This document shows, in pieces, positions 2,118 through 22,357 of a DNA stretch of 23,101 nt. The stretch comes from a bacterium. Its GTDB lineage: Bacteria; Patescibacteriota; Patescibacteriia; UBA1558; S5-K13. The translations under genes were made by a program, and so were the position numbers. Location of the stretch: positions 1-23,101 of the forward strand of contig JAKPTO010000032.1 in assembly GCA_029555085.1 (NCBI GenBank). Direction: 5' to 3'. Each line of letters opens with the position of its first letter. Position 1 is the stretch's first letter. Under the pieces are notes generated by a model. The model was not told where the DNA came from. It ran no database searches and saw only the letters and a program-made list of their open reading frames with translations.

Positions 2118-2141
2118 TTTTTATTTGTAATTTTTTATTTA

Positions 2142-2555: not shown

Positions 2556-2556
2556 A

Positions 2557-4101: not shown

Positions 4102-4154
4102 TAACATATCTTTTATTTTCCACCTTTTGCGAATCATTAAGGCGATCCATAGAT

Positions 4155-5337: not shown

Positions 5338-5408
5338 AGTATTTTAATTTTAAGCATTTAATAATGATTAGATTGAATGAATTTTTGAAATATAGATTTA
5401 TATTATCA

Positions 5409-5456
5409 ATACTATCAATTCTTTTTGCTTGTGTAAAGTAATTGTTTTGATATAAT
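5409..5456. promoter_or_regulatory. Overlapping divergent promoters for yebC (-) and the GT87-like gene (+)
   Basis: Minus strand: TTTACA (5437-5432), 17 bp, TGn-TAGTAT (5414-5409). Plus strand: TGn-TATAAT (5448-5456), ending 6 nt before the ATG at 5463. Confidence 0.55.
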
Positions 5457-5462
5457 AATTTT

Positions 5463-6752: not shown

Positions 6753-8146
6753 TTATTTTTTTTATAAAACATAAATCCACTTTCTTCAAAAATTAATTTG
6801 TAATTTTTAAAAATATAATCATCAACAGGATTATTTTTTTCATAATTAAATTTCTTCACTATAGCATAATATAAAACAGCGCATTTTGGTTGTTTTTTTT
6901 CAAGAATTTGTCTTGCTTCTTTGAATTGCGCTTCCGTGTGGTGATTTGTTATTAGCCAATCATATGGAGTTGGATTTATTTTTCTATTGTCAAAATATAA
7001 TTGTGGTAAAAATGGTCCAAAATAAACATCTTCTGAGTCGGAGCAATTTTCTTCCACAAATTTATGGATTATATTTTGAGTAGGTTTTATTTTGGGAATT
7101 ATTTTTTTATGAGTTAATGTGACAAAAATAGAAACAGTATATATTATATATACAAGAAATAAGGTAATAAATGAATAAATTATAAATTTTAAAAATTTTG
7201 TACAATTTATTTTTTTAAGTAATAATGGAGTTAAGCAATATAATGGAAATATTACGATAAGTATGTGTTGATCGTCTGCCCTTGCAAATGTCGTTATAAG
7301 CAAACAAAATTGTATAAATATTAAAAACCAAATATCTATTCTTTTTTCTCTGATAAAAACTTTTATGTATAATAAGAGAATAAACAATATAACATACAAG
7401 CGCCATGGAAAAATATAATTGATTTCTAAGCAATGGAATAATATAAAATAAACTAAATTATTGTAAATTAATTTAATTGGCCACAAAAAAAGTATAAATA
7501 GCGGTAGTACGGAAAATATTATATAAGATAGGCACCATTTTAAATAAATTTTATTTTTTTCTTTTAGAGAATAAAATATAAGAAAAGATACTATAGAAAT
7601 AATTAAAATTGCTCCCTTTTGTTGCAGAAATAATGTGGATATTCCAGATAGCAAACCAGCTATTATAAAATTTTTTTCTTTGCAATCATTAAGCCCTCTA
7701 ATTATAAAATAACAAGCCCAAATCATAAAAAACGCATTAAACGCATTGTGATTTATTATTGGCCAAAAACCAGAAGAAATAATAAATATGATTGGTAATA
7801 AGTAATTTAGTTTATTTTTATATATTAGTTCTGATATTCTAAAAATTCCGTAAGAAGCAAAAAAAAGCATTATTATAGAAAATAAATTGGCAACAAAATA
7901 ACTCACGCCAAATATTTTCCAAAGCCAAAAAATTAAATAAAAACTAGCCGGAGGAATAAATTCAAAAAAATCTATGTATAGTATTTTATTATTTATTAGA
8001 TTCCATGCGCCATTTATAATAACACCATTGTCCTGATTGTACCCATAGCCTATGTGTATATATAGAGTAAAAGCAAAAAGAAATATCCAAAAAAAATAAT
8101 ATCTATATTTAAAAATTTCCTTAAACGAACCTTTAATATCAAGCAT
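6749..8146 (-). CDS. GT-C fold membrane glycosyltransferase, putative
   Basis: First loop YNQDNG...YIDFFEFIPP resembles the D-E-G...Y-x-D-F-F...PP pattern of PMT/ArnT-like enzymes. Many TM segments plus a soluble C-terminal domain. Confidence 0.7.
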   Translation of the reverse strand: MLDIKGSFKEIFKYRYYFFWIFLFAFTLYIHIGYGYNQDNGVIINGAWNLINNKILYIDFFEFIPPASFYLIFWLWKIFGVSYFVANLFSIIMLFFASYGIFRISELIYKNKLNYLLPIIFIISSGFWPIINHNAFNAFFMIWACYFIIRGLNDCKEKNFIIAGLLSGISTLFLQQKGAILIISIVSFLIFYSLKEKNKIYLKWCLSYIIFSVLPLFILFLWPIKLIYNNLVYFILFHCLEINYIFPWRLYVILFILLLYIKVFIREKRIDIWFLIFIQFCLLITTFARADDQHILIVIFPLYCLTPLLLKKINCTKFLKFIIYSFITLFLVYIIYTVSIFVTLTHKKIIPKIKPTQNIIHKFVEENCSDSEDVYFGPFLPQLYFDNRKINPTPYDWLITNHHTEAQFKEARQILEKKQPKCAVLYYAIVKKFNYEKNNPVDDYIFKNYKLIFEESGFMFYKKNN

Positions 8147-8168
8147 AAAATAAGCGTTATTTATATAA

Positions 8169-8197
8169 ATATTAACAATTATACATATTTGTGTAAA
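8169..8197 (-). promoter_or_regulatory. Putative sigma70 promoter of the 6749-8146 gene
   Basis: TTTACA (8197-8192), 17 bp, TGn-TAATAT (8174-8169). Confidence 0.5.
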
Positions 8198-8357
8198 GCG
8201 TAAAAACTGTTTTTTTATTCGTTGTTAAAGTCGGGAAATGCGAAAATTATTTATCATGATTTTTGATTGATAAATATAAACATGTTTTTTTAGTATAAAT
8301 TTGAAGTATGCGGTTATAAGTTATATAATATATATAATTATCAATAAAAAAGTGTTT

Positions 8358-9059
8358 ATGGTGAATGAATTTGATGACTTTGCTGAAAATTATAGATCAA
8401 TACATGATGGAAATCTTAAAATTTCTGGTGGTGATAGTAATTATTTTAGTGAATATAAAATTTTAGAAATAAAAAGGAGAGATGGTGATAAAAAAATAGA
8501 ATCGATTTTTGATTTTGGTTGTGGCGATGGAATTCCACTAAGCTATTTTAGGAAATATTTTCCAAAAGCAGATTTATATGGAACAGACATATCTGAAAAA
8601 AGCATTGAAAAGGCGAAGAATAAAAATATACCAAATAGTACAATTTTTTTAATAAACGACGAAAGAGATTTACAAAATATAGAAAATAAAAAATTTGATA
8701 TGATATTTATATCATGTGTTTTCCACCATATTGATGATGAAAAAAAATTGAACAATATTTTAAATGAGTGTTATAGAATACTTAAAGATAGTGGGGTTTT
8801 GTATATTTTTGAACACAACCCTAAAAATCCATTTACAAGAAAAATTGTTAAAGACTGTATTTTTGATAAGGGAGTTAGGTTGATAAAACATAAAAGATTA
8901 AAAAAATTGGTTTCAAATAATAATTTTAAAAAAATATCTGTTAATTTTACATTGTTTTTTCCAAGATTTTTTTTATTCAACCCCCTTTTTATTTTTGAAA
9001 AAATTTTAATTAAATTACCAATTGGGGGACAATATTATATAAGAGCAAAAAAAATATGA
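8358..9059 (+). CDS. Class I SAM-dependent methyltransferase
   Basis: FDFGCGDG motif I, GTDIS, FDMIF..CVFHH and IFEHNP.NP motifs. Start moved to the ATG at 8358; overlaps the GT2 start (ATGA). Confidence 0.9.
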   Translation: MVNEFDDFAENYRSIHDGNLKISGGDSNYFSEYKILEIKRRDGDKKIESIFDFGCGDGIPLSYFRKYFPKADLYGTDISEKSIEKAKNKNIPNSTIFLINDERDLQNIENKKFDMIFISCVFHHIDDEKKLNNILNECYRILKDSGVLYIFEHNPKNPFTRKIVKDCIFDKGVRLIKHKRLKKLVSNNNFKKISVNFTLFFPRFFLFNPLFIFEKILIKLPIGGQYYIRAKKI

Positions 9060-10006
9060 ATAATAGATTAGCAATTATTATACCTTGTTATAATGAGGAA
9101 GAATGTTTATCAAAAACAGCAAAAGAGATACGGAGCGTTTTATTGAATTTAATACAAAAATCAAAAATATCAGAAGATAGTTTTATTTACTTTGTTAATG
9201 ATGGAAGTAGGGATAAAACATGGGATATTATTTCAAAATTACATGATGAAGATCCCAAAATTTTTAAAGGTTTGAAATTTTCCAGAAATTTTGGTCACCA
9301 AAATGCAATACTCGCCGGATTATTTTATACAAAAGAAAGGGCTGATTTTTTTGTCACAATTGATGCAGATTTGCAAGACGATACGAATGTAATCGAGAAA
9401 TTTTTAGATGCTTATTATAATGATGGAGCTGAGATTGTTTATGGAGTAAGAAAAAAAAGAGAAACAGATACATTTTTTAAAAAAATTACAGCAGAAATTT
9501 TTTATAAATTGATGCTTGTTATGGGAGTAAATATTGTTTATAATCATGCTGATTATAGATTTGCAACGAAAAAAGCAATAGAAAACCTATTTTTATTTAA
9601 TGAAGTTAATTTATTTTTAAGAGGAATTTTTCCACTAATTGGTTTTAAAACGCAACAGGTTTTTTATGATAGAAAAGAAAGAGAATTCGGAAAGTCAAAA
9701 TATTCACTCAAAAAAATGATTAATTTTGCATGGGATGGAATTACATCTTTTAGTATAGCTCCATTAAGATTTTTTGTTTTTATAAGTTTTTTTATTTTGA
9801 TATTGTCTATAATTTTAGGAATTTATTTTTTGATAAGGCATTTCACTGGTCATACAATTACAGGATGGACCTCTCTTACAGTTTTGATATTATTTTTGGG
9901 GTCATTGCAATCTCTTGGAATTGGAATTTTAGGAGAATATATTGGAAAAATTTATAAAGAAACAAAGCAAAGACCAAGATTTATAAAAGATATTGAAATA
10001 TTTTAA
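9056..10006 (+). CDS. GT2 polyprenyl-phosphate glycosyltransferase (GtrB/YkoT-like)
   Basis: IIPCYNEE, VNDGSRD, SRNFGHQ, IDADLQD, two C-terminal TM helices and GEYIGKIY.E.K.RP. Confidence 0.93.
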   Translation: MNNRLAIIIPCYNEEECLSKTAKEIRSVLLNLIQKSKISEDSFIYFVNDGSRDKTWDIISKLHDEDPKIFKGLKFSRNFGHQNAILAGLFYTKERADFFVTIDADLQDDTNVIEKFLDAYYNDGAEIVYGVRKKRETDTFFKKITAEIFYKLMLVMGVNIVYNHADYRFATKKAIENLFLFNEVNLFLRGIFPLIGFKTQQVFYDRKEREFGKSKYSLKKMINFAWDGITSFSIAPLRFFVFISFFILILSIILGIYFLIRHFTGHTITGWTSLTVLILFLGSLQSLGIGILGEYIGKIYKETKQRPRFIKDIEIF

Positions 10007-10024
10007 ATAATAAGCAATGAAATT

Positions 10025-11011
10025 ATGCATAATAATGTTTTAAAAACTTTTGAAAATACCCACAAACAGTTTGAGCAAGTTTTTGAAGAGTTTAATATTT
10101 CAAATTTGAAAAGTAAATTAGGAACAGTAGATAAAATTCTTGTTTGTGGAATGGGGGGTTCAGCGCTTGGGCCACACTTTGTAAGAAGTGTGTATGCTGA
10201 TAAAATTAATACTCCAATTATAATTTCGAATGAATATAATTTGCCAAAATGGGTGGATAAAAAAACTTTAATTGTGGTTTCAAGTTTTTCTGGCACAACA
10301 GAGGAATCAATTAATTGTTTCAACGAAGCCAAAAAGAGAAAATTTAAAACATATATAATTTGTACTGGCGGGAATTTATCAAAAGAGGATTCATTGAAAT
10401 TTGTTTATAATCCAAAATATAATTATGCTCAAAATCCAAGATTTGCCATCGGATATTCAATAGCAAGTTTTATTGTTTTATTGAATAAATTAGGATTTTT
10501 AAAAGTTAATAAAAAAGACATATTAAAACAAATTAAAATATTTTCAAAGGGAACGCTACAATCACGGAAAGTTACAAAGAAGATTGTAGGCAAAATTCCA
10601 ATAATTATCGCATCGGAACATTTAGTAGGAAATGCACATATTTTTCAAAATCAAATCAATGAAACAGGAAAGAATTTTGCCTCATATTTTGCAATTCCCG
10701 AAATTTGCCATCATCAATTTGAGGGACTCACATTTCCAAAAAATTTAGACAAAAATATAATCTATATTTTGTTAAATTCAAATTTATATTTTAAAAGAAA
10801 TCAGAAAAGATACGAAATAATGAAACAGGTTTTAAATAAAAAGAAAATTAAATTCGTAGAAATTAAAGCTACTGGTAAAAATGTTTTTGAAGAATCAATG
10901 TATGTTTTGGGAGTTTCTTCCTATGCATCACTTTATTTAGCAAACTCAAATAAAATTGATCCACAACCAAATCCATGGGTTGATTATTTGAAGAAAAGAA
11001 TTAATGAATAG
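10025..11011 (+). CDS. Bifunctional phosphoglucose/phosphomannose isomerase (SIS domain)
   Basis: CGMGGS, SFSGTTEE, PR, Q.NE.GK and PE..H motifs of the PGI/PMI family. Confidence 0.88.
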   Translation: MHNNVLKTFENTHKQFEQVFEEFNISNLKSKLGTVDKILVCGMGGSALGPHFVRSVYADKINTPIIISNEYNLPKWVDKKTLIVVSSFSGTTEESINCFNEAKKRKFKTYIICTGGNLSKEDSLKFVYNPKYNYAQNPRFAIGYSIASFIVLLNKLGFLKVNKKDILKQIKIFSKGTLQSRKVTKKIVGKIPIIIASEHLVGNAHIFQNQINETGKNFASYFAIPEICHHQFEGLTFPKNLDKNIIYILLNSNLYFKRNQKRYEIMKQVLNKKKIKFVEIKATGKNVFEESMYVLGVSSYASLYLANSNKIDPQPNPWVDYLKKRINE

Positions 11012-11017
11012 TTTTTT

Positions 11018-12361
11018 ATGGAAAATTTAAAAAATAGAATTTTTCATTTTTTATTAATTTTTATAAGTTTTTTGTATATAATATTGTTTATTTATTTACC
11101 AAAAATAAACCTAATAAAGGATATTAATTTTTCCACGAATAATTATTATGCTTTGTATAAACGCTCTGAAATATTTTCTCAAACAATAATTATTTTGTTT
11201 GTTATTTTTATTTTATATTGTTTGTTTTTTTATGGTATAAAAAATAATTTTTTTGAAATTAAATTTAAAAGATTATTTTTGTTCTCTGTGATTGTAAGTT
11301 TCTTTTCTATAATAGTTTTTCCCATTTTTTCATCTGATATATTTTATTATATTTGTAGTGATAGAGTTTTTGCTATTCATCATTTAAGCCCATTTACAAA
11401 TACATATGCATCGTTATCGGGGGATTATTTTCAAGATATTTTTCATGGCTATAGTTGGGAAACACATTTGAATAACTACGGGCCGATATTTATATTATTG
11501 TCATCAATTCCAGTTTTGCTTTTTTCAAAAAATTTATTTTTGTCTATTGTATTGTGGAAATTTATTTGTATAATAATTAATATTATAAATGGTTATTTGG
11601 TTTATAAAATTACTAAAAGCGAAAAGATTTATTTTTTATATGCATTTAATCCACTTTTGATTTTTGAGTTATGTTTAAATGCGCATAATGAAGTTTTAAT
11701 GATATTTTTTATACTACTTGCATTTTTTTATATTTTTAAAAAACCATGTATAAAGAATTATTTACTATCAATGGTTTTTTTAGTTTTATCTATATTAACA
11801 AAAATATTTAGTTTAGTTTTTTTACCAATATTTTTTTTATTAATGTTTTTAGGATTAAAATCAAAAAAGCAGAGGTTTCAATTTTTAATTTTTTCTACTA
11901 TTTTGTTGCTTATAATTATTATTCTTTCATATTGGCCATTTCATACAAATATTAAAGATATTATTAGTCCAATAATATTTCAATCTAGCTTTACAAGTTC
12001 AATTTTTGTGTCCCCACTTATTCAACTTATATGGTACGGTATTTACTTTTTTTCTGGAAAAGATTTTTTTCATATTGCATCATTTGTAAGCAGATTTGTG
12101 TTTTTAATTTCCTATGTTGGTATTTTATTTTGGGCGCTATTTAAGAAAAATAAACATTTTTCAAAACTTATTCTTATATCTTCTACAATAATATTTACAA
12201 TTTTTATTTTAACATTTTTTTCATGGCTGATGCCATGGTATTTTACCACCATAATTTGTCTAAATTTTTTATCTTATTTTTTTTCAAATAAGAAAGTGTA
12301 TTTAATGATGAATTTTTTCTTTACTTTGTATGGGATTTGTTTTTATTTTGTTTTAAGGTAA
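11018..12361 (+). CDS. GT-C glycosyltransferase, MptB/GT87-like polyprenol-phosphomannose-dependent
   Basis: FSSDIFYY, YGP, FNPL...AHNE, conserved K and PWY motifs in a polytopic membrane protein. Confidence 0.78.
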   Translation: MENLKNRIFHFLLIFISFLYIILFIYLPKINLIKDINFSTNNYYALYKRSEIFSQTIIILFVIFILYCLFFYGIKNNFFEIKFKRLFLFSVIVSFFSIIVFPIFSSDIFYYICSDRVFAIHHLSPFTNTYASLSGDYFQDIFHGYSWETHLNNYGPIFILLSSIPVLLFSKNLFLSIVLWKFICIIINIINGYLVYKITKSEKIYFLYAFNPLLIFELCLNAHNEVLMIFFILLAFFYIFKKPCIKNYLLSMVFLVLSILTKIFSLVFLPIFFLLMFLGLKSKKQRFQFLIFSTILLLIIIILSYWPFHTNIKDIISPIIFQSSFTSSIFVSPLIQLIWYGIYFFSGKDFFHIASFVSRFVFLISYVGILFWALFKKNKHFSKLILISSTIIFTIFILTFFSWLMPWYFTTIICLNFLSYFFSNKKVYLMMNFFFTLYGICFYFVLR

Positions 12362-12474
12362 TCTTTGGAAGATAAGTACTTATATTTAGGTTAATTTTTA
12401 TAAGTTTTGATATACAATATTTTTTTATTTACTAAAAATAATGTGATCTAAAAATGTTTATTTTTTAAACAAGA

Positions 12475-14301
12475 ATGAGATTAAAATTTTTACAAATTTT
12501 TAAAATTTTCTGCCTAATTTGTTTCGCATCTATTGTTTTAACATTTATTGGTTGTGATGTTTTTTTTATACATAAAAAAGAGATGATTTCTAGTGTCCCG
12601 ATCCATGAATATATTTTAAAAATTGTAACAAGTTTGATTCTGGGAATTTTACCAATATTTTTTCTTATATATATTAAGCAAATAAATAAAAATAAATATT
12701 TTTGGTATTTTATTTTTTTATTTTTTTGTTTATATTATTTATTTTTATTTCTCCTTCTGTCTTACTTTATTGTAACAGAGAATTTTTTTGATTTAGATTT
12801 TTTTGTTGACAATATTCATGAAGCATTTTTTACCATTTCACACTTTTTTGATGGTTTTAGTATAATCTTTATTTTGGTATTTTGTTTGATTTTTATATCA
12901 ACATTTTTTATTTCTGTAAATATTTTTAAATTGCAATCATATTTTGCTAAAAAGATTATTAAAATTATAATAATTATTTCTTCTATAATTTTGATAGTTT
13001 CAGTTTTTATACAATTTTATTTAGGATATGAAAAAGGATTGTTTCTAAATTTTATAAATACATTTTTCATACATAATGATCGGGTGTATCAACAGTATAA
13101 TAATGATTATGATTCTTTAGTTGATAGATATTTTAGCTTTGATATAAACAATTTTCAAATTGATAATGAAAAAGATTTGCCAGACATATACTTCATACAC
13201 TTGGAAAGTGTAAGTGGTTATTTAAAAGATAAGTCAATTATTCCGAATTTTGATAATTATTCAAAGCAATATGGAATTAATTTCGATAATTTTTATAGTA
13301 ATTCTATGCAAACATTGTTAGCTCAGGAATCTATTTTGTGCGCACTTCCGCCATCTATGAATGGTTATTTTAAATATAAATTTAATCCAGAAAATTTAAT
13401 TTGTATTCCTGAAATTTTATCTAATGCCGGATACAAAACTTTATTTTTTAAAAGTCACAATTTAGAATTTTCAGGAACTGGGAAATTTATGTCTCAAATA
13501 GGGTTTAGTGAGGTGCATAATAATGATATTATAAAACCCAAAGACATACAGTATAAGTGGGGGATTAGAGAAGATGTTTTTTATAATAGAGTTTATGAAT
13601 ATTTAGATAGATATAAAAATCAGAGAAAATTTGTTTATATCGCAGTTTCTACCACGAATCATTATCCATTTGAGCTTCATGATAAATTTCAAGATTTGCC
13701 AATAGATAGTCCAAAAAATATCTCAGAGAGAATACAAAATACCGTACATGTACAAGATAAATATTTACAAACTATTATAGAATATTTAAAAAATGATAAT
13801 AGAGAGAAATATGTTTTTTTATTTAGCGATCATGCTTGGCCACTTAATTATCATAATAGTAATTTTTTAAATCAAAGCAATGGATATAAAGAAAATTTTT
13901 ATATTCCATTTGCATTTTTATATTTCGGAAAAGAGAATACAAATTTTAAAATAGGACAGAGAGTTTCTGGTCTCTATAATGAAATTGATTTTTTGAAAAC
14001 CGTATTAGATTTATTAAATATTAAAACAAGCAATAATTATTTAGGAAACTCTTTTTATTGCGAATTATTAAAAGATTCAAAAAATTGTAATATTGATAAT
14101 TGTTCAATATCTATCCAGCCATATTCTGATAAGTATATAACATTTTTTTATGAAAATAATCATTATATTTACAATATAAAGAAAAAAAGAGCTTATTATT
14201 TCGATCTTTTAAATGATGAGTATGAAAATAATCAAAAAAATATAACGCAATTAGAATTTTTTAATCACTATAATAAGTGTAAAAACTTAATCGGATATTG
14301 A
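12475..14301 (+). CDS. LTA synthase/sulfatase-superfamily membrane phosphotransferase
   Basis: About five N-terminal TM helices, then an extracellular domain with HLES, a putative catalytic Thr (MQT), NHYPF and SDH metal-ligand motifs. Confidence 0.82.
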   Translation: MRLKFLQIFKIFCLICFASIVLTFIGCDVFFIHKKEMISSVPIHEYILKIVTSLILGILPIFFLIYIKQINKNKYFWYFIFLFFCLYYLFLFLLLSYFIVTENFFDLDFFVDNIHEAFFTISHFFDGFSIIFILVFCLIFISTFFISVNIFKLQSYFAKKIIKIIIIISSIILIVSVFIQFYLGYEKGLFLNFINTFFIHNDRVYQQYNNDYDSLVDRYFSFDINNFQIDNEKDLPDIYFIHLESVSGYLKDKSIIPNFDNYSKQYGINFDNFYSNSMQTLLAQESILCALPPSMNGYFKYKFNPENLICIPEILSNAGYKTLFFKSHNLEFSGTGKFMSQIGFSEVHNNDIIKPKDIQYKWGIREDVFYNRVYEYLDRYKNQRKFVYIAVSTTNHYPFELHDKFQDLPIDSPKNISERIQNTVHVQDKYLQTIIEYLKNDNREKYVFLFSDHAWPLNYHNSNFLNQSNGYKENFYIPFAFLYFGKENTNFKIGQRVSGLYNEIDFLKTVLDLLNIKTSNNYLGNSFYCELLKDSKNCNIDNCSISIQPYSDKYITFFYENNHYIYNIKKKRAYYFDLLNDEYENNQKNITQLEFFNHYNKCKNLIGY

Positions 14302-14326
14302 AAAATTTTTAAATAAGTTATATACT
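14298..14326 (+). promoter_or_regulatory. Putative sigma70 promoter of the DPM1-like gene
   Basis: TTGAAA (14298-14303), 17 bp, TATACT (14321-14326). Confidence 0.6.
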
Positions 14327-14347
14327 AGAAAAATAGCATATATTTTT

Positions 14348-15046
14348 ATGATTTACGTAGTAATTCCAACATACAATGAAAAGGAGAATATTTGCGATCT
14401 TGTTAAAAAGATATTTCGTTTGAATATAGAAAATTTAAAAATTTTAGTCATAGATGATAATTCCCCAGACGGAACCTACGAAGCATTACTAGAAATTAAA
14501 GACGATTTTCCGCTAGAAATTATAAAAAGACCCGGGAAGATGGGTTTGGGCAGCGCCTATATAGAGGGTTTTAAATATGCACTTTCACAGGGAGCTGAAA
14601 TGATAGTAGAGATGGATGCAGATTTTTCTCATAATCCGAATAAGATTCCAGAATTAGTTCAGTGCATAAAAGATGGAAATGATTTATGTATAGGTTCTAG
14701 ATGTGTAGAAGGTGGATGTACGATAGGTTGGAATGCGAAGAGAAAAATATTTTCTAGATCAGCGCAAATGTTTTCAAGATTAATGTTAGGATTAAAAACA
14801 AAAGATGTGACAGGTGGATTTAGGTGTTATCATAAAAAAATTTTTGATAAAGTTGATTTAAATAAAATTAAAAGCACAGGATATTCATTTCAAGAAGAAA
14901 TACTTTATTATATAGAAAAAGCAGGATTTAAAATAAAAGAAATTCCAATTTCATTTATTGATAGAAAAAGAGGAAAGTCAAAACTGCATTTTAAAGAAAT
15001 AACAGATTTATTAAAGAATGTAATAAGATTAAGATTCAAGAGATAA
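14348..15046 (+). CDS. Polyprenol-monophosphomannose synthase (DPM1/Ppm1-like GT2)
   Basis: VIPTYNE, IDDNSPDGT, GLGSAY..GF, EMDADFSH, D.TGGFR, GYSFQ.E and F.DR..G.SK motifs. Confidence 0.92.
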   Translation: MIYVVIPTYNEKENICDLVKKIFRLNIENLKILVIDDNSPDGTYEALLEIKDDFPLEIIKRPGKMGLGSAYIEGFKYALSQGAEMIVEMDADFSHNPNKIPELVQCIKDGNDLCIGSRCVEGGCTIGWNAKRKIFSRSAQMFSRLMLGLKTKDVTGGFRCYHKKIFDKVDLNKIKSTGYSFQEEILYYIEKAGFKIKEIPISFIDRKRGKSKLHFKEITDLLKNVIRLRFKR

Positions 15047-15106: not shown

Positions 15107-15160
15107 TTGACATAAATATTTTTTTGTGGTAATATATTATGCTAAATACAAACATGGAGG
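15107..15160 (+). promoter_or_regulatory. Strong sigma70 promoter and Shine-Dalgarno sequence
   Basis: TTGACA (15107-15112), 17 bp, TGn-TAATAT (15130-15135); GGAGG at 15156-15160, 5 nt before the ATG at 15166. Confidence 0.75.
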
Positions 15161-15165
15161 AAAAA

Positions 15166-15597
15166 ATGAAAAACATATTTATAGTATTTACACTAAGCCT
15201 TATTACTTTAGCGGTGATGATGATTACCAGCGGATGTTACATAAGAGCTGGTTTTTATGACCAGGGTCTTATTGACTCTACTGGAAAATCGGTTTTTAAC
15301 GGACCTATTGATGTAGTTTTTCCCAATACAGGAGATACCCCAATTTTTATGAATCTGACGGGGGGCGGATTTAGCGTAAATAGAATGATTTGTCCCGGAG
15401 AAGCTATTCCGCATATGTTGGGAGCCGGGAAGTACAAGCTCTCTATTGAAAAAGATGGGGAAGTCTATACTGGCGAGGTTATCCTATGGGATAAGGGTGA
15501 CTTTATAATTTTTGGAAAGAAGGTAGATGATTTTATTTACCTGGATAAAAAATGGGAGGAGTGGAGGAACGCTCCCCCTAAAAGATACAGACTTTAA
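15166..15597 (+). CDS. Hypothetical exported protein, probable lipoprotein with a beta-rich (PEGA-like) domain
   Basis: Signal peptide ending in lipobox-like TSG-C and a GKYKLSIEKDG segment. It has its own promoter, SD and terminator. Start reassigned from 15139 to 15166. Confidence 0.6.
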   Translation: MKNIFIVFTLSLITLAVMMITSGCYIRAGFYDQGLIDSTGKSVFNGPIDVVFPNTGDTPIFMNLTGGGFSVNRMICPGEAIPHMLGAGKYKLSIEKDGEVYTGEVILWDKGDFIIFGKKVDDFIYLDKKWEEWRNAPPKRYRL

Positions 15598-15599
15598 AA

Positions 15600-15632
15600 A
15601 AAGAGGGTTGTTGATAATCAACAACCCTCTTT
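15600..15632. terminator. Bidirectional terminator between convergent units
   Basis: Perfect inverted repeat AAAGAGGGTTGTTGAT-A-ATCAACAACCCTCTTT between the stops at 15597 (+) and 15644 (-). Confidence 0.85.
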
Positions 15633-15643
15633 AAAATTTATTT

Positions 15644-16060
15644 TTACCAGTAGTAACCATTAGTGAGAATATTTCCCAAAATAAGCTTCATTACAATAGC
15701 TGTTATGATATAAGAAAGTAGAACTATTAAGATTCCTATTATGGCGCTCTTTATCATGGCTTTGGATTTTTTTATTATTTCATCATTTCCGCCACTAGTC
15801 ATCCATTTAAATCCAGCAATAATTATTAATATCAAAAATATGAATCCAAGAAATCCAAGGAACATTTTTATGTATTTTATTACCAATGCTTCAGTTAGTA
15901 GCGAGGTAGAGGTAGATTTAATGCCAGCCGTTTCGGCAAATAAATCCATATTATAGCCCGCATCACCATTTGGACTATAAGCGCTTTGAGCATTGATTTT
16001 TAATAAAGGCAGTAGAACGCAATTTAAAATTATTATAAACAATATTTTTTTTATTTTCAT
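15644..16060 (-). CDS. VirB2/TrbC-like (T4SS-pilin-like) protein, copy 8
   Basis: Signal peptide (INA-QS), then TM - GFKWMTSGGNDE..KKSK.MIKSAIIG - TM core. Confidence 0.85.
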   Translation of the reverse strand: MKIKKILFIIILNCVLLPLLKINAQSAYSPNGDAGYNMDLFAETAGIKSTSTSLLTEALVIKYIKMFLGFLGFIFLILIIIAGFKWMTSGGNDEIIKKSKAMIKSAIIGILIVLLSYIITAIVMKLILGNILTNGYYW

Positions 16061-16518
16061 GGTCTTTGATTTAGTACATTAAATACAAATGTTGATATTG
16101 TAAAAGATAATAGAACAATAGCCAGTCCTATAATAGAGTTTTTTAATTTTGCTTTTGCTTTATTAATTGTATCTTCGTTGCCGCCAGCAGTCATCCATTG
16201 AAATCCGGATATAATTGTTAAAATTAAAAAAATTATGCCGAGTAAACTAAGTATGGATTTTATAATAATTGCTATTGTGTCTATTATTGTGTAATCATGC
16301 GCTTGTGGGTAACCAGCTTCATCACCAACTTTTTGTAATTTTCCAATAATCATATTTTTGCTAGAAGAAGCATTGGTACTATTATTACTATCTTCTTCCG
16401 CAGGTTCTTCAGTGCCGGAACCTCCACCTGGGTCGTTCGCTTCTGTGGCAAAAGAAATATTTGAAAATATAATAAATATTATAATTATTGACAATATTGG
16501 AATTAAAAATTTTTTCAT
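16057..16518 (-). CDS. VirB2/TrbC-like pilin, copy 7, acidic/Ser-rich N-terminus
   Basis: Signal peptide (SFA-TE) and GFQWMTAGGNEDTINKAK core. Start moved to MKKFLIP at 16518. Confidence 0.85.
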   Translation of the reverse strand: MKKFLIPILSIIIIFIIFSNISFATEANDPGGGSGTEEPAEEDSNNSTNASSSKNMIIGKLQKVGDEAGYPQAHDYTIIDTIAIIIKSILSLLGIIFLILTIISGFQWMTAGGNEDTINKAKAKLKNSIIGLAIVLLSFTISTFVFNVLNQRP

Positions 16519-16684
16519 ATTTTTATTATACACTTTAATTAAATTTAGTTTTATCCATTAACCACAATGTTATAAACATTGTTAGAGCATATGCCATCAG
16601 AACTATTGCAAGTCCGTATGTAGCATTTTTCAATCTCGCTTTTGCTTTATTAATTGTATCTTCGTTGCCGCCAGCAGTCATCCA
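16151..16684. repeat. 47-bp exact direct repeat shared by pilin copies 7 and 6
   Basis: GCTTTTGCTTTATTAATTGTATCTTCGTTGCCGCCAGCAGTCATCCA at 16151-16197 and 16638-16684. Confidence 0.95.
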
Positions 16685-16993
16685 CTGTAAACCAGAAACT
16701 ATGATAAGGATAAGAAATAATATTCCCACAATAGATAAAACTGTTTTTATTATTTTTCCTATTATTTCCTCAATTTCCATATTATCTTTATAACCAACCT
16801 CTGGATTTGTGGCTACATTGTTTAGATTATTTTCAGCATTAGATATCCCAGGTTGAATATCTGCTTGGGTAAGTTGAATTGTCTGCGCTGTGGGGTTTTC
16901 TAATAATGCCGACGCATGGTTTGTTACTACCAAGAAAAACATTATCAAAATGAACGCATATTGTAGTTTTTTTATTATGGAGTAATTTTTCAT
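16535..16993 (-). CDS. VirB2/TrbC-like pilin, copy 6
   Basis: Signal peptide (ASA-LL) and GLQWMTAGGNEDTINKAK core between two TM helices. Confidence 0.85.
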   Translation of the reverse strand: MKNYSIIKKLQYAFILIMFFLVVTNHASALLENPTAQTIQLTQADIQPGISNAENNLNNVATNPEVGYKDNMEIEEIIGKIIKTVLSIVGILFLILIIVSGLQWMTAGGNEDTINKAKARLKNATYGLAIVLMAYALTMFITLWLMDKTKFN

Positions 16994-17067
16994 TATATTT
17001 TTAAATAATAATTATAAATATATTATATTGTTTATTATTTTTCAGATATGTAAATTGAGTTAAGATA

Positions 17068-17559
17068 TTAGACATTGAGAGATGTACGGAAGGATAGGAT
17101 AAATTGTGTTATAACATAGGCGCATAGAATTATCGCAAGTCCTATAACCGCATTTTTTATTGCTTCTTTTGATTTTTTGACTTTTTCTTCATCGCCTCCA
17201 GCAGTCATCCACTGAAAGCCATTAAATATAATAAGAATAAATATTATTACCCCCAAAAAGGCCAAAACTGCAGATATAATTCCGATGATTATTTGGAGTA
17301 TTCCAGTTTTTGATTTATTGTACTGTAATTCGCCAGCTGTTACATCTAAATCATTTGTTATCATATTAAATGTTTGCTCAACACCAGCACTGTTACTGTC
17401 TATATCATCGCTACTTGTAGCACTATCCGATGTACTTTCCTCAGCATTGCTTGTGGTATCACCTTCAGCTTTTATATTGCTTATAAAACAAAAATTTAGA
17501 AATATAATAAATATTAATAGTGGTAGAATTATGTTTTTTTTGTTTTTAAGTAACGACAT
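17068..17559 (-). CDS. VirB2/TrbC-like pilin, copy 5, Ser/Thr/Asp-rich N-terminus
   Basis: Signal peptide (IKA-EG) and GFQWMTAGGDEEKVKKSK core. Confidence 0.85.
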   Translation of the reverse strand: MSLLKNKKNIILPLLIFIIFLNFCFISNIKAEGDTTSNAEESTSDSATSSDDIDSNSAGVEQTFNMITNDLDVTAGELQYNKSKTGILQIIIGIISAVLAFLGVIIFILIIFNGFQWMTAGGDEEKVKKSKEAIKNAVIGLAIILCAYVITQFILSFRTSLNV

Positions 17560-18043
17560 CTTTTATTATTGTAAATAGATTGGATGTTATAACATAAGCA
17601 GCAAGTATTATTATAAGTCCCAAAACAGAGTTTTTTATTTTTGCTTTTGCCTGGGTTATGGTTTCTTCATTACCGCCAGCTGTTATCCATTGATATCCAG
17701 CAATAATTATATTAACAAAAACTAAAATACCAACTATACCTAATGCATATCCAACTATTGTCGTGGCCATGTCTTTTGGAGTTTTTTGTGTTTTAAGACC
17801 AGCTATATCTGCTGTCCGAGCTAATCCACTTTTAGTAGCCGATCCTGCTGGACAACATTGATTGGTTACACTAGAGTTATCACGACATTCTCCAGATATA
17901 CAACCCAATGTTCCGCAGTTATTTCCACACTCTATACAAGAATATCCAGGGTGTTTGTTTGAACAAGTGTTTTCTGCAATAGCATAATTAAAAGAAAGTA
18001 TAAGTGTTAATGTTAGTACAAAAAATAAAAGTATTTTTTTCAT
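17546..18043 (-). CDS. VirB2/TrbC-like pilin, copy 4, 8-Cys N-terminal domain
   Basis: Signal peptide (AIA-EN), eight Cys ending in CC, and GYQWITAGGNEETITQAK core. Confidence 0.85.
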   Translation of the reverse strand: MKKILLFFVLTLTLILSFNYAIAENTCSNKHPGYSCIECGNNCGTLGCISGECRDNSSVTNQCCPAGSATKSGLARTADIAGLKTQKTPKDMATTIVGYALGIVGILVFVNIIIAGYQWITAGGNEETITQAKAKIKNSVLGLIIILAAYVITSNLFTIIKDVVT

Positions 18044-18123
18044 GTAGTTATTTTAAAAACATATATATAATTTTAAACTGAAAAATTATATATCAAATTT
18101 TTAATATTCTTTAAAATATATTT

Positions 18124-18168
18124 CACATTCTTCCCCACCTTTATATTTATAAAGATGAGGAAAGTGTG
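18124..18168 (-). terminator. Long RNA hairpin 3' of pilin copy 3 (terminator or mRNA stabiliser)
   Basis: Minus-strand CACACUUUCCUCAUCUUUAU-AAAU-AUAAAGGUGGGGAAGAAUGUG pairs with three G-U wobbles, which are mismatches on the plus strand. No clean U tract follows. Confidence 0.65.
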
Positions 18169-18184
18169 CATATATTATTATTGA

Positions 18185-18613
18185 TTAACTTCCAGATTCA
18201 CTACCGCCTGCACCACTTCTAGTGTTTAGCGCGCTGCCAGCTGCTCCAAATATTAGGCTTGTTATTACATATGACATGAGAATTAAAATAAGGCCAATTA
18301 TTCCTGCTCCTAACATTTTTTTTGCTGCGCCAATTTTTTCTTCATTTCCACCGCTAGTCATCCATTTAAATCCAGCAATTATAATTACTATAAGAGCTAT
18401 GAATCCTAAAAATCCCAATACTACTCTCACAACATTTAATACTGTTGCCTCTGCGTTGGTACTGTTTCCAAGACCAACATCTGGGATGTACCCTAGGTTG
18501 TGTGTATTGAATCCACTTAGCTGCGCTTTTACTACTGGAACATTGAATAGTGGCAAACAAATTATCATTGCCATTACACCTAAGCTAATTAGGTTTTTTG
18601 TTAGCTTTTTCAT
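18185..18613 (-). CDS. VirB2/TrbC-like pilin, copy 3 (candidate major subunit)
   Basis: Signal peptide (VKA-QL), GFKWMTSGGNEEKIGAAKK core and a Gly/Ser C-terminal tail; dedicated promoter and 3' hairpin. Confidence 0.87.
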   Translation of the reverse strand: MKKLTKNLISLGVMAMIICLPLFNVPVVKAQLSGFNTHNLGYIPDVGLGNSTNAEATVLNVVRVVLGFLGFIALIVIIIAGFKWMTSGGNEEKIGAAKKMLGAGIIGLILILMSYVITSLIFGAAGSALNTRSGAGGSESGS

Positions 18614-18682
18614 TATTTTTTTCTTTCTTTTTCTGTTTTCTAAAAACAGAATTAATTTATTTAAAATATATTAATATTGTTT

Positions 18683-18711
18683 ATAATAGCACTTTTTATA
18701 AAAATGAGCAA
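18683..18711 (-). promoter_or_regulatory. Internal sigma70 promoter for pilin copy 3
   Basis: TTGCTC (18711-18706), 17 bp, TGn-TATTAT (18688-18683). Confidence 0.65.
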
Positions 18712-18746
18712 TTTATTTATGAGTATTTATTACGATACTTATTTTT

Positions 18747-19133
18747 TTATTGAATTAAAACATCTAATATAAAATTTAGAATACTATAACTTGCAAATAC
18801 TACTACCAATCCTAATACTGCCCATTTTAAAGTTTCTTTGCCCTTTTTTACATTGTCTTCATTTCCACCAGACATTATCCATAAAAATCCACCATAAATA
18901 AACATGATTAATGATAGTGAACCTATAATACCCAAAAGACCAAGTATAACCTTACCAATAAGAGTTTGAAATGTATTTATATTACCAAGTGGGTTTGCTA
19001 ATGTTTGGTCAGCAGAAACTTTTTTTATAAAAAATGTTGATAATGTTGTTAAGAGAGCTATTCCGATTGGTTTATGATATATATTTTTTTTAATATTTTC
19101 ATAATTTATTGGAGGTGTGTTTATTTTTTTCAT
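18747..19133 (-). CDS. VirB2/TrbC-like pilin, copy 2 (minimal)
   Basis: VSA-DQ cleavage site, LANPLG and GGFLWIMSGGNEDNVKKGKETLKWAVLG core. Confidence 0.85.
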   Translation of the reverse strand: MKKINTPPINYENIKKNIYHKPIGIALLTTLSTFFIKKVSADQTLANPLGNINTFQTLIGKVILGLLGIIGSLSLIMFIYGGFLWIMSGGNEDNVKKGKETLKWAVLGLVVVFASYSILNFILDVLIQ

Positions 19134-19259
19134 TTTATTTATAGTTTAAATAATTATTATTTAGATAATGCTACAGTTCCCTTTTTGTTTTAATGTTTTT
19201 ATTAATTCATTGATTTAAAAATATTTTTTGTTTTTATTTCTAAAAGATTGTAAATTTTA

Positions 19260-20015
19260 TTACCTTCCCTTTATTACATCTTGAATTTTATATTCAGAAT
19301 TACTTGGCAAAATAAGATCTTGAACAAAACGGACTATTAAAAATGAACATAATGCTATTGCAAGTCCAATTACAGAGTTAATCATCATTGATTTTGCGGA
19401 AGAAATTTTTTCTGAATTGCCTTGTGAAATTATCATTTGTATTCCAGCTATAATAAAGAACAATAAAGCTATAGACGCTATAACTCCAAGTAAAATATTA
19501 GCTCCATTTATTCCAGCTGTAACCAGGTCTTCAGTTGAGCACTCTCCGGTATCTCTACAATGTTCTATTCCAGTAAAAATATGTGAACCCTTTTTTTCTG
19601 GAGCTAGTGGTATGGATGGTGGCGGTTCAAGTGGAGTTATTGTTGGTGGTTCTAATTGAGTTTGCACACAACACAAATCACTGGGGTTGGGACACCGATC
19701 TCCCGCTATCGTTTCTCCAATGCTAGTATCACAACTACTTTTGCATGTTCCGGTACATGCGTTTGCGCATGTTCCATTGTTACTACACATTCCAGATGGA
19801 CACCGTTGATCGTTATCTACATATGTACAGATTCCCGTATTATACGGAGCATAATCAGACTGACATTCACTACATATAGGACAATCATCATCAGTTTCAC
19901 AAGAACTTTGAGCTTCTGCAAAATTAAAGAATATTATTATTGGAAAAATTATAAGTAAATATATAAATATTTTTTTTAAGCTACTGAATTTTTTATTATT
20001 ATTTTTATTTTTCAT
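19260..20015 (-). CDS. VirB2/TrbC-like pilin, copy 1, with a large Cys-rich domain and Pro-rich linker
   Basis: Signal peptide (AEA-QS), 14-Cys region, LEPP..LEPPP linker, CRDTGEC loop and GIQMIISQGNSEKISSAK core. Confidence 0.82.
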   Translation of the reverse strand: MKNKNNNKKFSSLKKIFIYLLIIFPIIIFFNFAEAQSSCETDDDCPICSECQSDYAPYNTGICTYVDNDQRCPSGMCSNNGTCANACTGTCKSSCDTSIGETIAGDRCPNPSDLCCVQTQLEPPTITPLEPPPSIPLAPEKKGSHIFTGIEHCRDTGECSTEDLVTAGINGANILLGVIASIALLFFIIAGIQMIISQGNSEKISSAKSMMINSVIGLAIALCSFLIVRFVQDLILPSNSEYKIQDVIKGR

Positions 20016-20074
20016 ATAAATAAATTTTTTTAATTTTACTAAAAGGTATAAAATTTCATCTAATAGATTTTATT

Positions 20075-21484
20075 TTATTGAATGGTTTGATTTATTTTTA
20101 TCTGGTATGTATTTATTATAGCATCTAAATTAGTATTTGCGCCAGCATTTTTTATCCCATTTGTTAATTCTTTTATATATTGACTGGCGAGTTCTGGATT
20201 AGAGCCCTTGTACCAGGATTTTGCTGTAAGTATTTGATTTACAAATGGAGCAAGATATAAATCTTTGCTTTGTTCAGAAATTAAATCTTTGAGCGCTGTT
20301 GGTCTGTTGGATTTTTCAAGATAATCTTTAACATTTTCTTTTCGTGTTGCAAAATCTATAAATCCCCAAGCAATATCTGGATGTTTTGTTTTGTGTGAGA
20401 CTGTCATTACCCAATAATTTCCAATATTTACAGGATTTCTAAGGATTATTTCTCCATTGTTTGATATGTCATAATCTAATTGTGGGACTTGTGTTACCCC
20501 GAAATTAAGTCTTTGCGCCTCTGCTTTACTTATGTCATGTGGGTATCCAAAGAAAAATGCAACTTGCCCACTTTTGAAAGCTTCCAGTGAATTTGATTGT
20601 TCTTTGTTCCATGAATATGTTTCTTTTATTGGATTTGAAAAATCATTATAGAAATTTATTGATGATAAAAAATTATTTTTATTTGTAACATTAAATCCTC
20701 CACTTGCGCCTCCCACATCAATAGATCTACTTTGTAGTAAAAGAAGCGCAATTATATCAGACGCATTTGTAATATTTTCTGTTGCCCCAAGCGCTGTTCC
20801 TGATTGTTGAATTTTTCCATCTTTTGAAATTCGACTAATTTTTTTTACTTGCCCTATAAAATCTTCTATTTCTCTACCTGAAATGCCAGACCATACTTGA
20901 GTTGGACGTATTATATTATTATCATCTAGCATATTTTTATTATAAAACATTCCCAGAGTTTCAATGCTTAATGGTAGACCGTAAATTTTACCATCCATAT
21001 AAACATCTTTCATTACAATTTGTGGAAATTTGGTTTCCAGATCATTTCTTGAGGTTGTGGGAACGCTTTTTGTGTAATCATATTGATCTACCTTTTGAAA
21101 GGAGCCTATTTTATTCACCTTGATTTCTCTATATGGTAGATTTACAGATTTTGGCATGGGAGTAATTCTTCCCTTGTTTTTGTATTTTATAATTAAGTTA
21201 CTTGGTATGAAATATATGTCTGGACCACCATTTAAACTAGCCCATTCTTCAAGTAATCTATATTCATATTCTTTGAATTCGAGTTTTTTGTATTGGAAAT
21301 TTACTGTTGGGTGGAGTGTCTTGAATTTATCAAATAATACTTGAAGAGCGTCTCTTTCTTCGAATACCCCCCATACAGTTATAGTTACATCTGGATTTAA
21401 TTTAGATTTTTTTGTATTACACTGAAATCCTGATGTTATAAGAAGTACAAATATTAAAAATATTATTATTTTTTTTATTTTCAT
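20075..21484 (-). CDS. Extracellular solute-binding protein (carbohydrate ABC SBP family 1-like), possibly a lipoprotein
   Basis: N-terminal hydrophobic anchor ending SGFQC; TITVWG, GPDI, IYGLPLS.ETLGMFYNK, AF.SGQVA and AW.FI.F motifs. Confidence 0.85.
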   Translation of the reverse strand: MKIKKIIIFLIFVLLITSGFQCNTKKSKLNPDVTITVWGVFEERDALQVLFDKFKTLHPTVNFQYKKLEFKEYEYRLLEEWASLNGGPDIYFIPSNLIIKYKNKGRITPMPKSVNLPYREIKVNKIGSFQKVDQYDYTKSVPTTSRNDLETKFPQIVMKDVYMDGKIYGLPLSIETLGMFYNKNMLDDNNIIRPTQVWSGISGREIEDFIGQVKKISRISKDGKIQQSGTALGATENITNASDIIALLLLQSRSIDVGGASGGFNVTNKNNFLSSINFYNDFSNPIKETYSWNKEQSNSLEAFKSGQVAFFFGYPHDISKAEAQRLNFGVTQVPQLDYDISNNGEIILRNPVNIGNYWVMTVSHKTKHPDIAWGFIDFATRKENVKDYLEKSNRPTALKDLISEQSKDLYLAPFVNQILTAKSWYKGSNPELASQYIKELTNGIKNAGANTNLDAIINTYQIKINQTIQ

Positions 21485-21490
21485 ATTGGT

Positions 21491-22357
21491 TTATTTTAAA
21501 ATTTGTTTTAAATATTTTTTGAAATCTATTGCTATGTCTTTTCTGTCTAACGCGTATTCAACAGTTGCTTGTAGAAAATTTAGAGGATCTCCCGTTGTTA
21601 ACCATTTTCCGCCCTCGGTTTGTTTTGCGTATGCTTTGCCACCATTTTTTATATAAGTATCTATTGCATCCGCAATCCAAAGTTCGTTATTTTTTCCGAG
21701 AGTTTGGTTTTTTAAAATTTGAATTATTTCAGAGTTTAAAATATATCTTCCAAAAATTGCTAAGTCAGATGGAGCTTCCTTGATTTCCGGTTTTTCAATA
21801 ATTTTTTCAATTTGATTTTTAGTTCCTTTTTTAATCCCCACTATTCCATATTTTGGTATATCTTTTTTAGGAATTTTTTGGACACCCATTATTACACCCG
21901 GATTTTTTTCATATTCTTCTAATAATTGTTTCGTGAAAGATTTTTTTGATTTTACTAAATCATCGCCAAATGCATAAATAAAAGGTTCATCTTTAACTAT
22001 TGATTCAGCGCATAAAACAGGAGTTCCATTTCCATAAGGACCTTTTTGTCTTATGTAAATATAATTTGCTAAATTCGCGATTTTTCTTATTTGTTCTAAA
22101 TAATCTAGTTTATTTGCTTTTAATAATTGTTGTTCTAATTCTGTGTTTACATCAAAATGATCTTCAAGTGGTTTTTTAGTCCATGTTGTTATCATTATGA
22201 TATCTTTTATTCCAGCATCAACTAATTCTTCTACTATGTATTGAACTATGGGTTTATCAACTATTGGTAGCATTTCTTTTGGTTGCGCTTTTGTGACTGG
22301 CAAAAATCTTGTTCCTGATCCAGCCACTGCTATAACCGCCTTTGTTATTTTTTTCAT
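21491..22357 (-). CDS. galU: UTP--glucose-1-phosphate uridylyltransferase
   Basis: KAVIAVAGSGTRFLPVTKAQPKEMLPIVDKP, EDHFD, IEKP and GRYIL motifs. Confidence 0.93.
   Translation of the reverse strand: MKKITKAVIAVAGSGTRFLPVTKAQPKEMLPIVDKPIVQYIVEELVDAGIKDIIMITTWTKKPLEDHFDVNTELEQQLLKANKLDYLEQIRKIANLANYIYIRQKGPYGNGTPVLCAESIVKDEPFIYAFGDDLVKSKKSFTKQLLEEYEKNPGVIMGVQKIPKKDIPKYGIVGIKKGTKNQIEKIIEKPEIKEAPSDLAIFGRYILNSEIIQILKNQTLGKNNELWIADAIDTYIKNGGKAYAKQTEGGKWLTTGDPLNFLQATVEYALDRKDIAIDFKKYLKQILK

Follow-up and report, generated by a model that had tools for sequence, protein, structure and literature searches.

An ordered array of eight VirB2-like pilin genes in a patescibacterial genome and the possible assembly of its products by a monoderm-type secretion system

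Introduction

The stretch of DNA considered here, referred to as the window, comprises 23,101 nucleotides and constitutes one contig (JAKPTO010000032.1 of assembly GCA_029555085.1; C27 of genome G000 in the following) of a patescibacterial genome of 1.02 Mb that is 99% complete and belongs to a tiny bacterium dependent on a host. Its central feature is an array of eight co-oriented open reading frames (ORFs) on the minus strand (15644-20015), named s1 to s8 in the order of transcription, each of which encodes a small protein with a Sec-type signal peptide, a variable segment and a conserved core of two hydrophobic helices. On balance, the products are probably ordered VirB2-like subunits, which a chromosomal type IV secretion system (T4SS) of the monoderm type would assemble into a mixed pilus or conduit built on an s3 backbone. 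The locus is another instance of a kind of array already published for Patescibacteria and does not represent a new type of system; both the array phenomenon and the idea that it serves host adaptation have been put forward before (PMC12102498). The details added by the present analysis are the order of the slots, giant proteins that carry an s3-type module, polypilins, and a likeness to a pilin-like protein of Mycoplasma integrative and conjugative elements (ICEs).

Architecture of the eight copies

Each of the eight copies is a complete ORF that has a start codon and encodes a signal peptide, and neighbouring genes overlap by up to 14 nt or lie at most 141 nt apart (Table 1). As read from the sequences, each of the eight N-termini comprises a basic start, a hydrophobic stretch, an Ala at position -1 and a small or aliphatic residue at -3, with predicted cleavage (arrow) at INA↓Q, SFA↓T, ASA↓L, IKA↓E, AIA↓E, VKA↓Q, VSA↓D and AEA↓Q. 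A simple cleavage-site script caught seven of these sites, while the eighth, AEA↓Q of s1, lies outside its range and was read by eye. Three hydrophobic segments are detected by script in every copy. Instead of the type IV prepilin motif G↓F-x-x-x-E, for which all eight sequences were inspected by eye and which is absent from each of them, the proteins feature Sec-type signal peptides. Hence, the description given in the first-pass annotation of the window, namely eight co-oriented genes that lack a prepilin motif and whose products combine an Ala-terminated signal peptide with a variable segment and a two-helix core, agrees with both the ORFs and the alignment.

An alignment of the eight copies shows invariant L, I, G, G, K and G residues, a mean column identity of 33% and identities of 30-42% to the first copy. 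The core motif of s1, which had been singled out before as the more divergent one, indeed departs most from the others, with M in place of W and QG in place of GG. At the DNA level the core appears as a 124-nt repeat present in six copies; since these repeats are only 60-74% identical, nothing points to a recent duplication or conversion. Models obtained with AlphaFold2 from family alignments place helices at residues 54-86 and 91-134 of s3, with a predicted local distance difference test (pLDDT) score of 82-89, and at residues 161-196 and 201-235 of s1 (pLDDT 80-92), while residues 39-50 of s3 and 38-124 of s1 score below 50. The conserved core is accordingly predicted to be a helical hairpin, as had been expected of it, with a helix-turn-helix arrangement in both copies modelled and a pLDDT of about 80-92. 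The turn between the helices is the most conserved part of the family, which fits a part that is read by a machine or lines a lumen better than it fits a plain anchor.

In six of the eight copies the variable segment spans 19-53 residues, is free of Cys, rich in S, T, N and G, and mostly acidic. Cys residues occur in the variable segments of s4 (eight) and s1 (16 by visual count, ahead of a Pro-rich linker), and only these two segments look, from their composition, like possible small domains. Searches of the ESM Atlas returned weak likenesses for the Cys-rich part of s1 (DX, WAP, Dickkopf and prokineticin, TM <0.4) and otherwise pilin clusters and generic hairpins only. Because the variable parts are mostly short polar linkers, and because they adopt no confident fold in the two copies modelled, s1 and s3, the unrelated payload domains attributed to the genes by the first-pass annotation are an overstatement for most copies.

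Relation to known pilin families

Family membership was judged against the cut-offs of the Pfam families PF18895 (T4SS_pilin, 26.6 bits) and PF04956 (TrbC/VirB2, 27.9 bits) and of the equivalog model NF045849 (40 bits). Seven copies exceed the PF18895 cut-off at 30.4-45.3 bits (s1 30.4, s2 45.3 and s4 42.1 bits), and s8, which remains under it at 19.6 bits, displays a canonical core motif. PF04956 is exceeded by s2 alone (31.3 bits); three further copies score lower (17.0-19.4 bits) and four are unlisted. NF045849, which describes Mbov_0395, the pilin-like conjugal transfer protein of Mycoplasma ICEs, matches all eight copies at E <= 5.1e-4, with only s7 above the cut-off (46.6 bits) and the other seven at 19.7-38.0 bits; judged by these scores, the copies are related to that family but are not members of it. 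In a profile-profile comparison by hhalign, the array aligned with a 24-sequence VirB2 alignment over 55 collinear columns that cover both helices (probability 31.9%, E 4.9e-4). The earlier assignment of the array to the VirB2/TrbC-like T4SS_pilin family is thus supported by the Pfam matches and by the collinearity of the profiles.

With the eight-copy profile, a search of 1.84 billion representatives yielded 80659 clusters at E <= 0.001, and the source names carried by the pilin relatives are Patescibacteria or Nomurabacteria. Searched against the sequences of the Protein Data Bank (PDB), the same profile found only a designed protein (E 0.053), and a tblastn search with s2 in 72,556 plasmids gave zero matches. 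A complex prediction with four copies of s3 residues 31-142 scored 0.00 against a mark of 0.42; made without controls, it weighs neither way on self-assembly.

The size of the products, their signal peptides and their arrangement as an array recall a reading proposed in 2020, when McLean et al. interpreted four to six small proteins with Sec signals beside the T4SS of Saccharibacteria, the 'Sec-secreted array' of TM7x, as effectors, drawing an analogy with the ptx/ptl locus (PMC7427843). That the subunits of the present array are effectors or toxin-like subunits secreted via the T4SS is very improbable, given that two long hydrophobic helices remain past the signal peptide and that pilin families match. 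Moreover, the arrays of TM7x and Southlakia were later re-read as pilins (PMC12102498, PMC10633639), the series within the T4SS cluster of Southlakia epibionticum ML1 being described by Wang et al. in 2023 as predicted pilins that are essential according to transposon sequencing (PMC10633639).

Conservation of the locus and order of the slots

PF18895 is found in all 41 genomes of the same order, with 3-16 matches each, and in 120 of 121 genomes sampled across the phylum; VirB4 is likewise present in 41 of 41 genomes of the order, in 35 of them above cut-off. Five relatives from the same family carry the array at the same chromosomal site, flanked on one side by a family 2 glycosyltransferase (GT2) gene and a small lipoprotein gene and on the other by genes for a solute-binding (SBP) lipoprotein and a GalU-like protein. 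It comprises eight copies in G004 and in G005, nine in G003, and at least six in G002 and at least five in G001, where contigs end. The chromosomal position, the retained synteny with housekeeping genes and the lack of a match to relaxase family PF03432 speak, as the first-pass annotation had proposed, against an ordinary conjugative element.

A maximum-likelihood tree of 43 array proteins, from which one masked copy of G003 was dropped, spreads the copies of each genome over shared clades, with eight changes for the eight copies of G000. The copies are therefore old positional orthologues and not lineage-specific duplicates. The s2 orthogroup has a support of 100/99, s6 also falls in a shared orthogroup, and orthologues of s1, 194-402 aa in length, occur in G001, G003, G004 and G005. 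As for s4, G000 and G002 share its Cys-rich segment, which the orthologues in G001, G003 and G004 lack. The only recent duplication seen involves G003, which carries two near-identical s3-type copies (L020:3253-3648 and L020:6550-6945; branch lengths 0.11-0.13), one of them outside the array beyond the lipoprotein gene.

Within the genus, GT2 and GalU are 84-90% identical, SBP 60-62% and the pilin cores 50-73%, whereas the N-terminal parts, signal peptide included, reach only 19-41%, save for s3 with 57-68%. The expectation that the N-terminal parts evolve faster than the core is hence in accordance with these identities.

More distant loci were traced by means of the GalU-like protein, a search that returned mostly Bacillota and, as the closest named record, a metagenome-assembled genome (MAG) of Ca. 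Lloydbacteria with 61%. Arrays of 4-12 copies lie downstream in 7 of 14 distant patescibacterial loci, and their best hits follow the order s1-like, s2-like, s3-like and then a variable number of s4-s8-like copies, that is, a long Cys-rich, a TrbC-like and a conserved slot followed by a variable group. With slots 1-3 largely fixed and the remainder elastic, the genes are not interchangeable cassettes; the notion of interchangeable domains in the first-pass annotation is at odds with positional orthogroups that are kept across genera and with a largely fixed content. The longest series, in a MAG of Ca. Magasanikbacteria (L079:10319-15592), consists of 12 ORFs matching the pilin profile below GalU, compared with 2-11 genes in the published arrays (PMC12102498).

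Contigs matching the array were obtained from four RNA libraries of three studies on activated sludge and biofilm, with 0-4 differing letters per piece, and those of run X15 reach all eight genes. The s3 contig is the deepest in each of the four RNA runs, though the depth of contigs is no basis for ranking genes and RNA libraries may contain DNA; likewise, gaps without cover (e.g. 19992-20300) prove nothing. Fourteen DNA runs contain every sampled word of the array, but all of them are flagged as possible sources and so do not constitute independent evidence of invariance between strains.

As the genes are diverged tandem copies whose exposed part varies, the array might also be taken for a store of antigenic variation, with one expressed gene into which silent cassettes recombine, in the manner of pilE/pilS. 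This explanation is scarcely credible here, as all eight ORFs are complete, the DNA identity of 60-74% leaves no long identical tracts, the copies have positional orthologues across genera, and a single RNA run touches all eight genes.

A monoderm-type secretion system in the same genome

None of the 17 other ORFs scanned in the window matches a T4SS family at E <= 1e-5, and four of them match no family at all. The earlier remark that a VirB4 gene is absent thus holds for the window but not for the genome, in which a VirB4 gene resides on contig C5. This protein belongs to the monoderm CD1110 family NF045971 (conju_CD1110; 355.9 bits against a cut-off of 325 bits) and in addition scores 270 bits on NF045975, the VirB4 model of Mycoplasma ICEs. 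Beside it are encoded TrsD-like, PrgI/VirB3-like and DsbA-like proteins and, 4 kb off, a 470-aa protein with a pilin domain. By these family scores, the genome possesses the monoderm-type (MPF-FATA-like) VirB4 with TrsD and PrgI that is a trait of the published arrays. The search for partners elsewhere in the genome, which the first-pass annotation had suggested, yielded VirB4, TrsD-like and PrgI-like proteins on C5, and with VirB4 and pilins together in 41 of 41 relatives, the implied independence from a T4SS is not supported.

In total, the genome holds 12 matches to PF18895: the eight array copies, the 470-aa protein on C5, proteins of 596 aa and 2315 aa on C51, and a 288-aa fragment on C46. 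A pilin-domain protein of 380-500 aa is encoded 4-6 kb from VirB4 in all five genomes that have both on one contig. Further T4SS components were sought throughout the genome. Proteins resembling type IV coupling proteins are represented by weak matches, of 540 aa on C30 (TrwB_AAD_bind, 41.7 bits) and of 847 aa on C3 (20.4 bits). Neither the relaxase family PF03432, the one relaxase family searched, nor the Pfam family of VKOR has a match in the genome. Contig C5 also encodes a 405-aa reverse transcriptase (RVT_1, 50.4 bits; L017:2427-3644) about 4 kb from the gene of the 470-aa pilin-domain protein.

Giant pilin-headed proteins and polypilins

The two proteins on C51 are encoded by adjacent genes outside the window (596 aa, L018:5624-7414; 2315 aa, L018:7420-14367) and begin with a signal peptide joined to an s3-type pilin module, beyond whose second helix they continue with Big_5 and TIG Ig-like repeats. 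Their N-termini match s3 best, with 125 bits for the protein of 2315 aa and 97 bits for that of 596 aa, compared with at most 69 bits for any other slot. Such a pair, of about 500-1000 aa and more than 1600 aa, is present in at least 19 of the 41 relatives among the rows listed. If the hairpin is oriented with both ends outward, as proposed below, the C-terminal payload of the giants would also point outward. The pair is preceded, at a distance of 1.9 kb, by a gene for signal peptidase I. A literature search on pilin-headed giant proteins found no description, which is not proof that none exists.

Fusions of another type prevail among the best 150 representatives of the family (P0023-P0172), 132 of which contain 2-17 pilin units per polypeptide. 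P0024, for instance, has six units joined by short linkers, with one signal peptide only and none between the units. Fused units of this kind suggest that neighbouring units lie side by side in the same topology.

The main rival to assembly by a T4SS takes the same hairpin to be a general two-helix anchor in a membrane-anchored surface coat, which would hold short polar or Cys-rich ectodomains as well as giant adhesins without involving a filament or a T4SS. It can point to the module that heads the Big_5/TIG proteins of 596 aa and 2315 aa and to the recurrence of this pair in relatives, to an array that is not linked to VirB4, to a huge family of 80659 clusters that is near-universal in the phylum, and to the placement of the array among envelope glycosylation genes. 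We nevertheless consider it unlikely, as conservation is strongest in the inter-helix turn and not in the ectodomains, the copies are kin to pilin-like proteins of conjugative systems, a pilin-domain gene is retained beside VirB4 in five of five genomes, and the pilins of Southlakia are located within a T4SS cluster (PMC10633639).

A model of assembly and its weight

According to the favoured model, in which a T4SS assembles the subunits, each product would pass through the Sec pathway and be processed by signal peptidase I. The mature protein would form a membrane hairpin, with the N-terminus and the short C-terminus facing outward and the G-G-N-E-E...K-A-K turn exposed to the cytoplasm. Subsequently, the machinery of the VirB4-family ATPase on C5 would extract the hairpins and assemble them into a mixed pilus or a pilus-like conduit. 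In this structure s3, the candidate backbone pilin, would be accompanied by s1 (long and Cys-rich) and s2 (TrbC-like) as old specialised minor subunits, while s4-s8, as a group that evolves faster, would lend variety to the exposed surface. The giant Ig-repeat proteins with their s3-type module would join or dock as adhesins.

Several observations weigh against this model. The likeness to canonical VirB2 is weak, both between profiles (probability 31.9%) and between a single sequence and VirB2 of the Ti plasmid (probability 11%). A Foldseek search of the PDB with the s3 model gave no match at E <= 0.001, and a VIA-align search, likewise with s3, listed generic helical hairpins at Z <=9.6 (helical level about 13) and no T4SS pilin among the best 50; such fold searches with the s3 model cannot separate a pilin from any other helical hairpin. 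Besides, the array is unlinked to the T4SS genes, being on C27 with VirB4 on C5, and the two are about 99 kb apart in G004 and about 84 kb apart in G005, so that the array lacks the position beside VirB3/VirB4 that characterises VirB2-type genes. The T4SS locus moreover encodes a pilin-domain protein of its own, so the array may not be the source of its pilin. Given that PF18895 and VirB4 are near-universal in the phylum, their co-occurrence cannot discriminate between explanations, and no match to the Pfam family TrbL/VirB6 was found in this 99%-complete genome. If the hairpin were a mere membrane anchor, the giant fusions and the polypilins would be accounted for just as well. Finally, according to a 2025 review, a T4SS pilus has yet to be observed in Patescibacteria (PMC12857230).

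The lack of an observed pilus would suit a role of the subunits solely inside the translocation channel of the T4SS, in which case no extracellular filament would be formed; Gram-negative systems that require the pilin yet produce no pilus offer a parallel. Eight diverging paralogues, fast-evolving outward N-termini and pilin-headed adhesins are hard to explain on these terms, which makes such a role quite unlikely.

Beyond the T4SS-assembled pilus or conduit as such, a more specific proposal, which we put forward tentatively and regard as rather doubtful, treats the hairpin as a modular polymerisation unit. The ordered set of s1 (tip- or adhesin-like), s2, s3 and variable subunits would then co-assemble with giant adhesins bearing the s3 module, and in some lineages with polypilins, into an adhesive T4SS pilus that contacts the host of a monoderm cell. 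If true, these would be the first modular VirB2-type pilins, and the likeness to Mycoplasma ICEs would imply that the pilin arrived with the monoderm T4SS instead of being borrowed from diderm systems.

The matter is of interest because the T4SS and the pilin series are essential to epibiotic life in the one Patescibacterium tested (PMC10633639). A slot order with one conserved backbone candidate provides such arrays with a testable structure, and the s3-type module of giant adhesin-like proteins makes a likely assembly partner predictable from sequence. Furthermore, the likeness to the Mycoplasma ICE pilin bears on the origin of monoderm T4SS pilins.

Gene coordinates and genomic neighbourhood

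The genes of the array and its immediate neighbours are compiled in Table 1. For s7, the ATG at 16518, which yields a protein of 153 aa beginning with MKKFLIP, is more likely the true start than the GTG. A hairpin with a 15-bp stem (15600-15632), identified by a consensus scan only, separates the end of the array from the convergent lipoprotein gene and is likely, from its sequence, to act as a two-way terminator.

Table 1. Array genes and adjacent features of the window
Feature	Coordinates	Strand	Description
s1	19260-20015	-	251 aa; first gene; signal peptide AEA↓Q, 16-Cys region, Pro-rich linker, divergent core (GIQMIISQGNSEK)
s2	18747-19133	-	128 aa; shortest and most TrbC-like copy
s3	18185-18613	-	142 aa; most conserved slot
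s4	17546-18043	-	165 aa; 8-Cys segment ahead of the core
s5	17068-17559	-	163 aa; acidic, Ser/Thr-rich variable segment; 14-nt overlap with s4
s6	16535-16993	-	152 aa
s7	16057-16533	-	158 aa from the GTG start at 16533
s8	15644-16060	-	138 aa; last gene; 4-nt overlap with s7
GalU-like nucleotidyl transferase	21491-22357	-	Pfam; upstream neighbour
Orphan solute-binding lipoprotein	20075-21484	-	Pfam; upstream neighbour; no permease gene beside it
Small protein with lipobox-like ITSGC	15139-15597	+	Flanks the array; position kept in relatives, as for the solute-binding lipoprotein

The order of GalU and SBP is the same in G001, G003, G004 and G005; the two genes are given as context only. Genes connected with envelope sugars surround the array (552-15046 and 21491-22357) and encode a GtrA-like protein, a PMT_2-type glycosyltransferase, two GT2 proteins, an LtaS/sulfatase-like membrane protein, a bacterial PGI and the GalU-like protein. 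Glycosylation of the Ser/Thr-rich N-termini of the pilins is, in view of their sequence, a possibility.

Comparison with known systems

With the VirB2/TrbC/TraA pilins of Gram-negative bacteria, e.g. the T-pilin of Agrobacterium, the array copies share a signal peptide, two hydrophobic helices and a short turn with basic residues; a conserved W ends helix 1 in both, the profile alignment is collinear, and s2 passes the TrbC family of Pfam. On the contrary, the turn is eight residues longer here and the mature N-terminus bears 20-135 additional residues. Moreover, there are eight copies and not one, the genes lie away from VirB3/VirB4, the cell is a monoderm and a pilus has not been observed.

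Tandem amplification of a T4SS pilin is also common to Anaplasma and Bartonella, whose multiple, diverged VirB2 paralogues are read as varying the exposed surface, as cited in PMC12102498; in contrast to the bacterium in question, both are diderm intracellular animal pathogens with a canonical VirB system.

The Mbov_0395 family of Mycoplasma ICEs, which all eight copies match, likewise stems from T4SSs of wall-poor or monoderm cells. While the name of the Mycoplasma protein refers to one gene in a mobile element, the present genes form a chromosomal array in a genome in which no relaxase was found. A literature search on the pilin-like proteins of Mycoplasma ICEs found no paper describing them, which does not prove that there is none.

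Modular type IV pilins whose C-terminal part is an adhesin module, e.g. PilB and PilC of Streptococcus sanguinis, resemble the giant proteins on C51 in that a pilin module bears a large adhesive payload. This likeness is one of principle only, since PilB and PilC belong to another pilin superfamily, that of type IV pili, and are cut by prepilin peptidase.

The closest counterparts are the arrays already published for Patescibacteria, among them the pilin series of Southlakia epibionticum ML1 and the TM7x 'Sec-secreted array'. Quinonero-Coronel et al. reported in 2025 on 441 arrays of 2-11 VirB2-like pilin genes in 383 patescibacterial assemblies, with a mean identity between copies of 25% and a maximum of 54%, and suggested that the arrays reflect adaptation to differing host strains; the pilin gene lies apart from virB4 in 813 of 1948 assemblies (PMC12102498). 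Their definition of an array, at least two tandem pilin genes or one non-pilin gene between them, applies to the eight consecutive genes described here. A 2024 perspective calls the role of the T4SS completely unknown (PMC11665869), and a possible pilus is termed an intriguing possibility in the 2025 review (PMC12857230). Tandem PF18895/TrbC-like genes, signal peptides, low identity between copies and a monoderm-type VirB4 are common to the published arrays and the present genome. The published arrays are further described with neither a relaxase nor a clear coupling protein; the present genome gave no match to PF03432 and the weak coupling-protein-like matches listed above. What goes beyond the former is the fixed order of the slots, the s3-type module on giant adhesin-like proteins and the conserved GalU-SBP neighbourhood.

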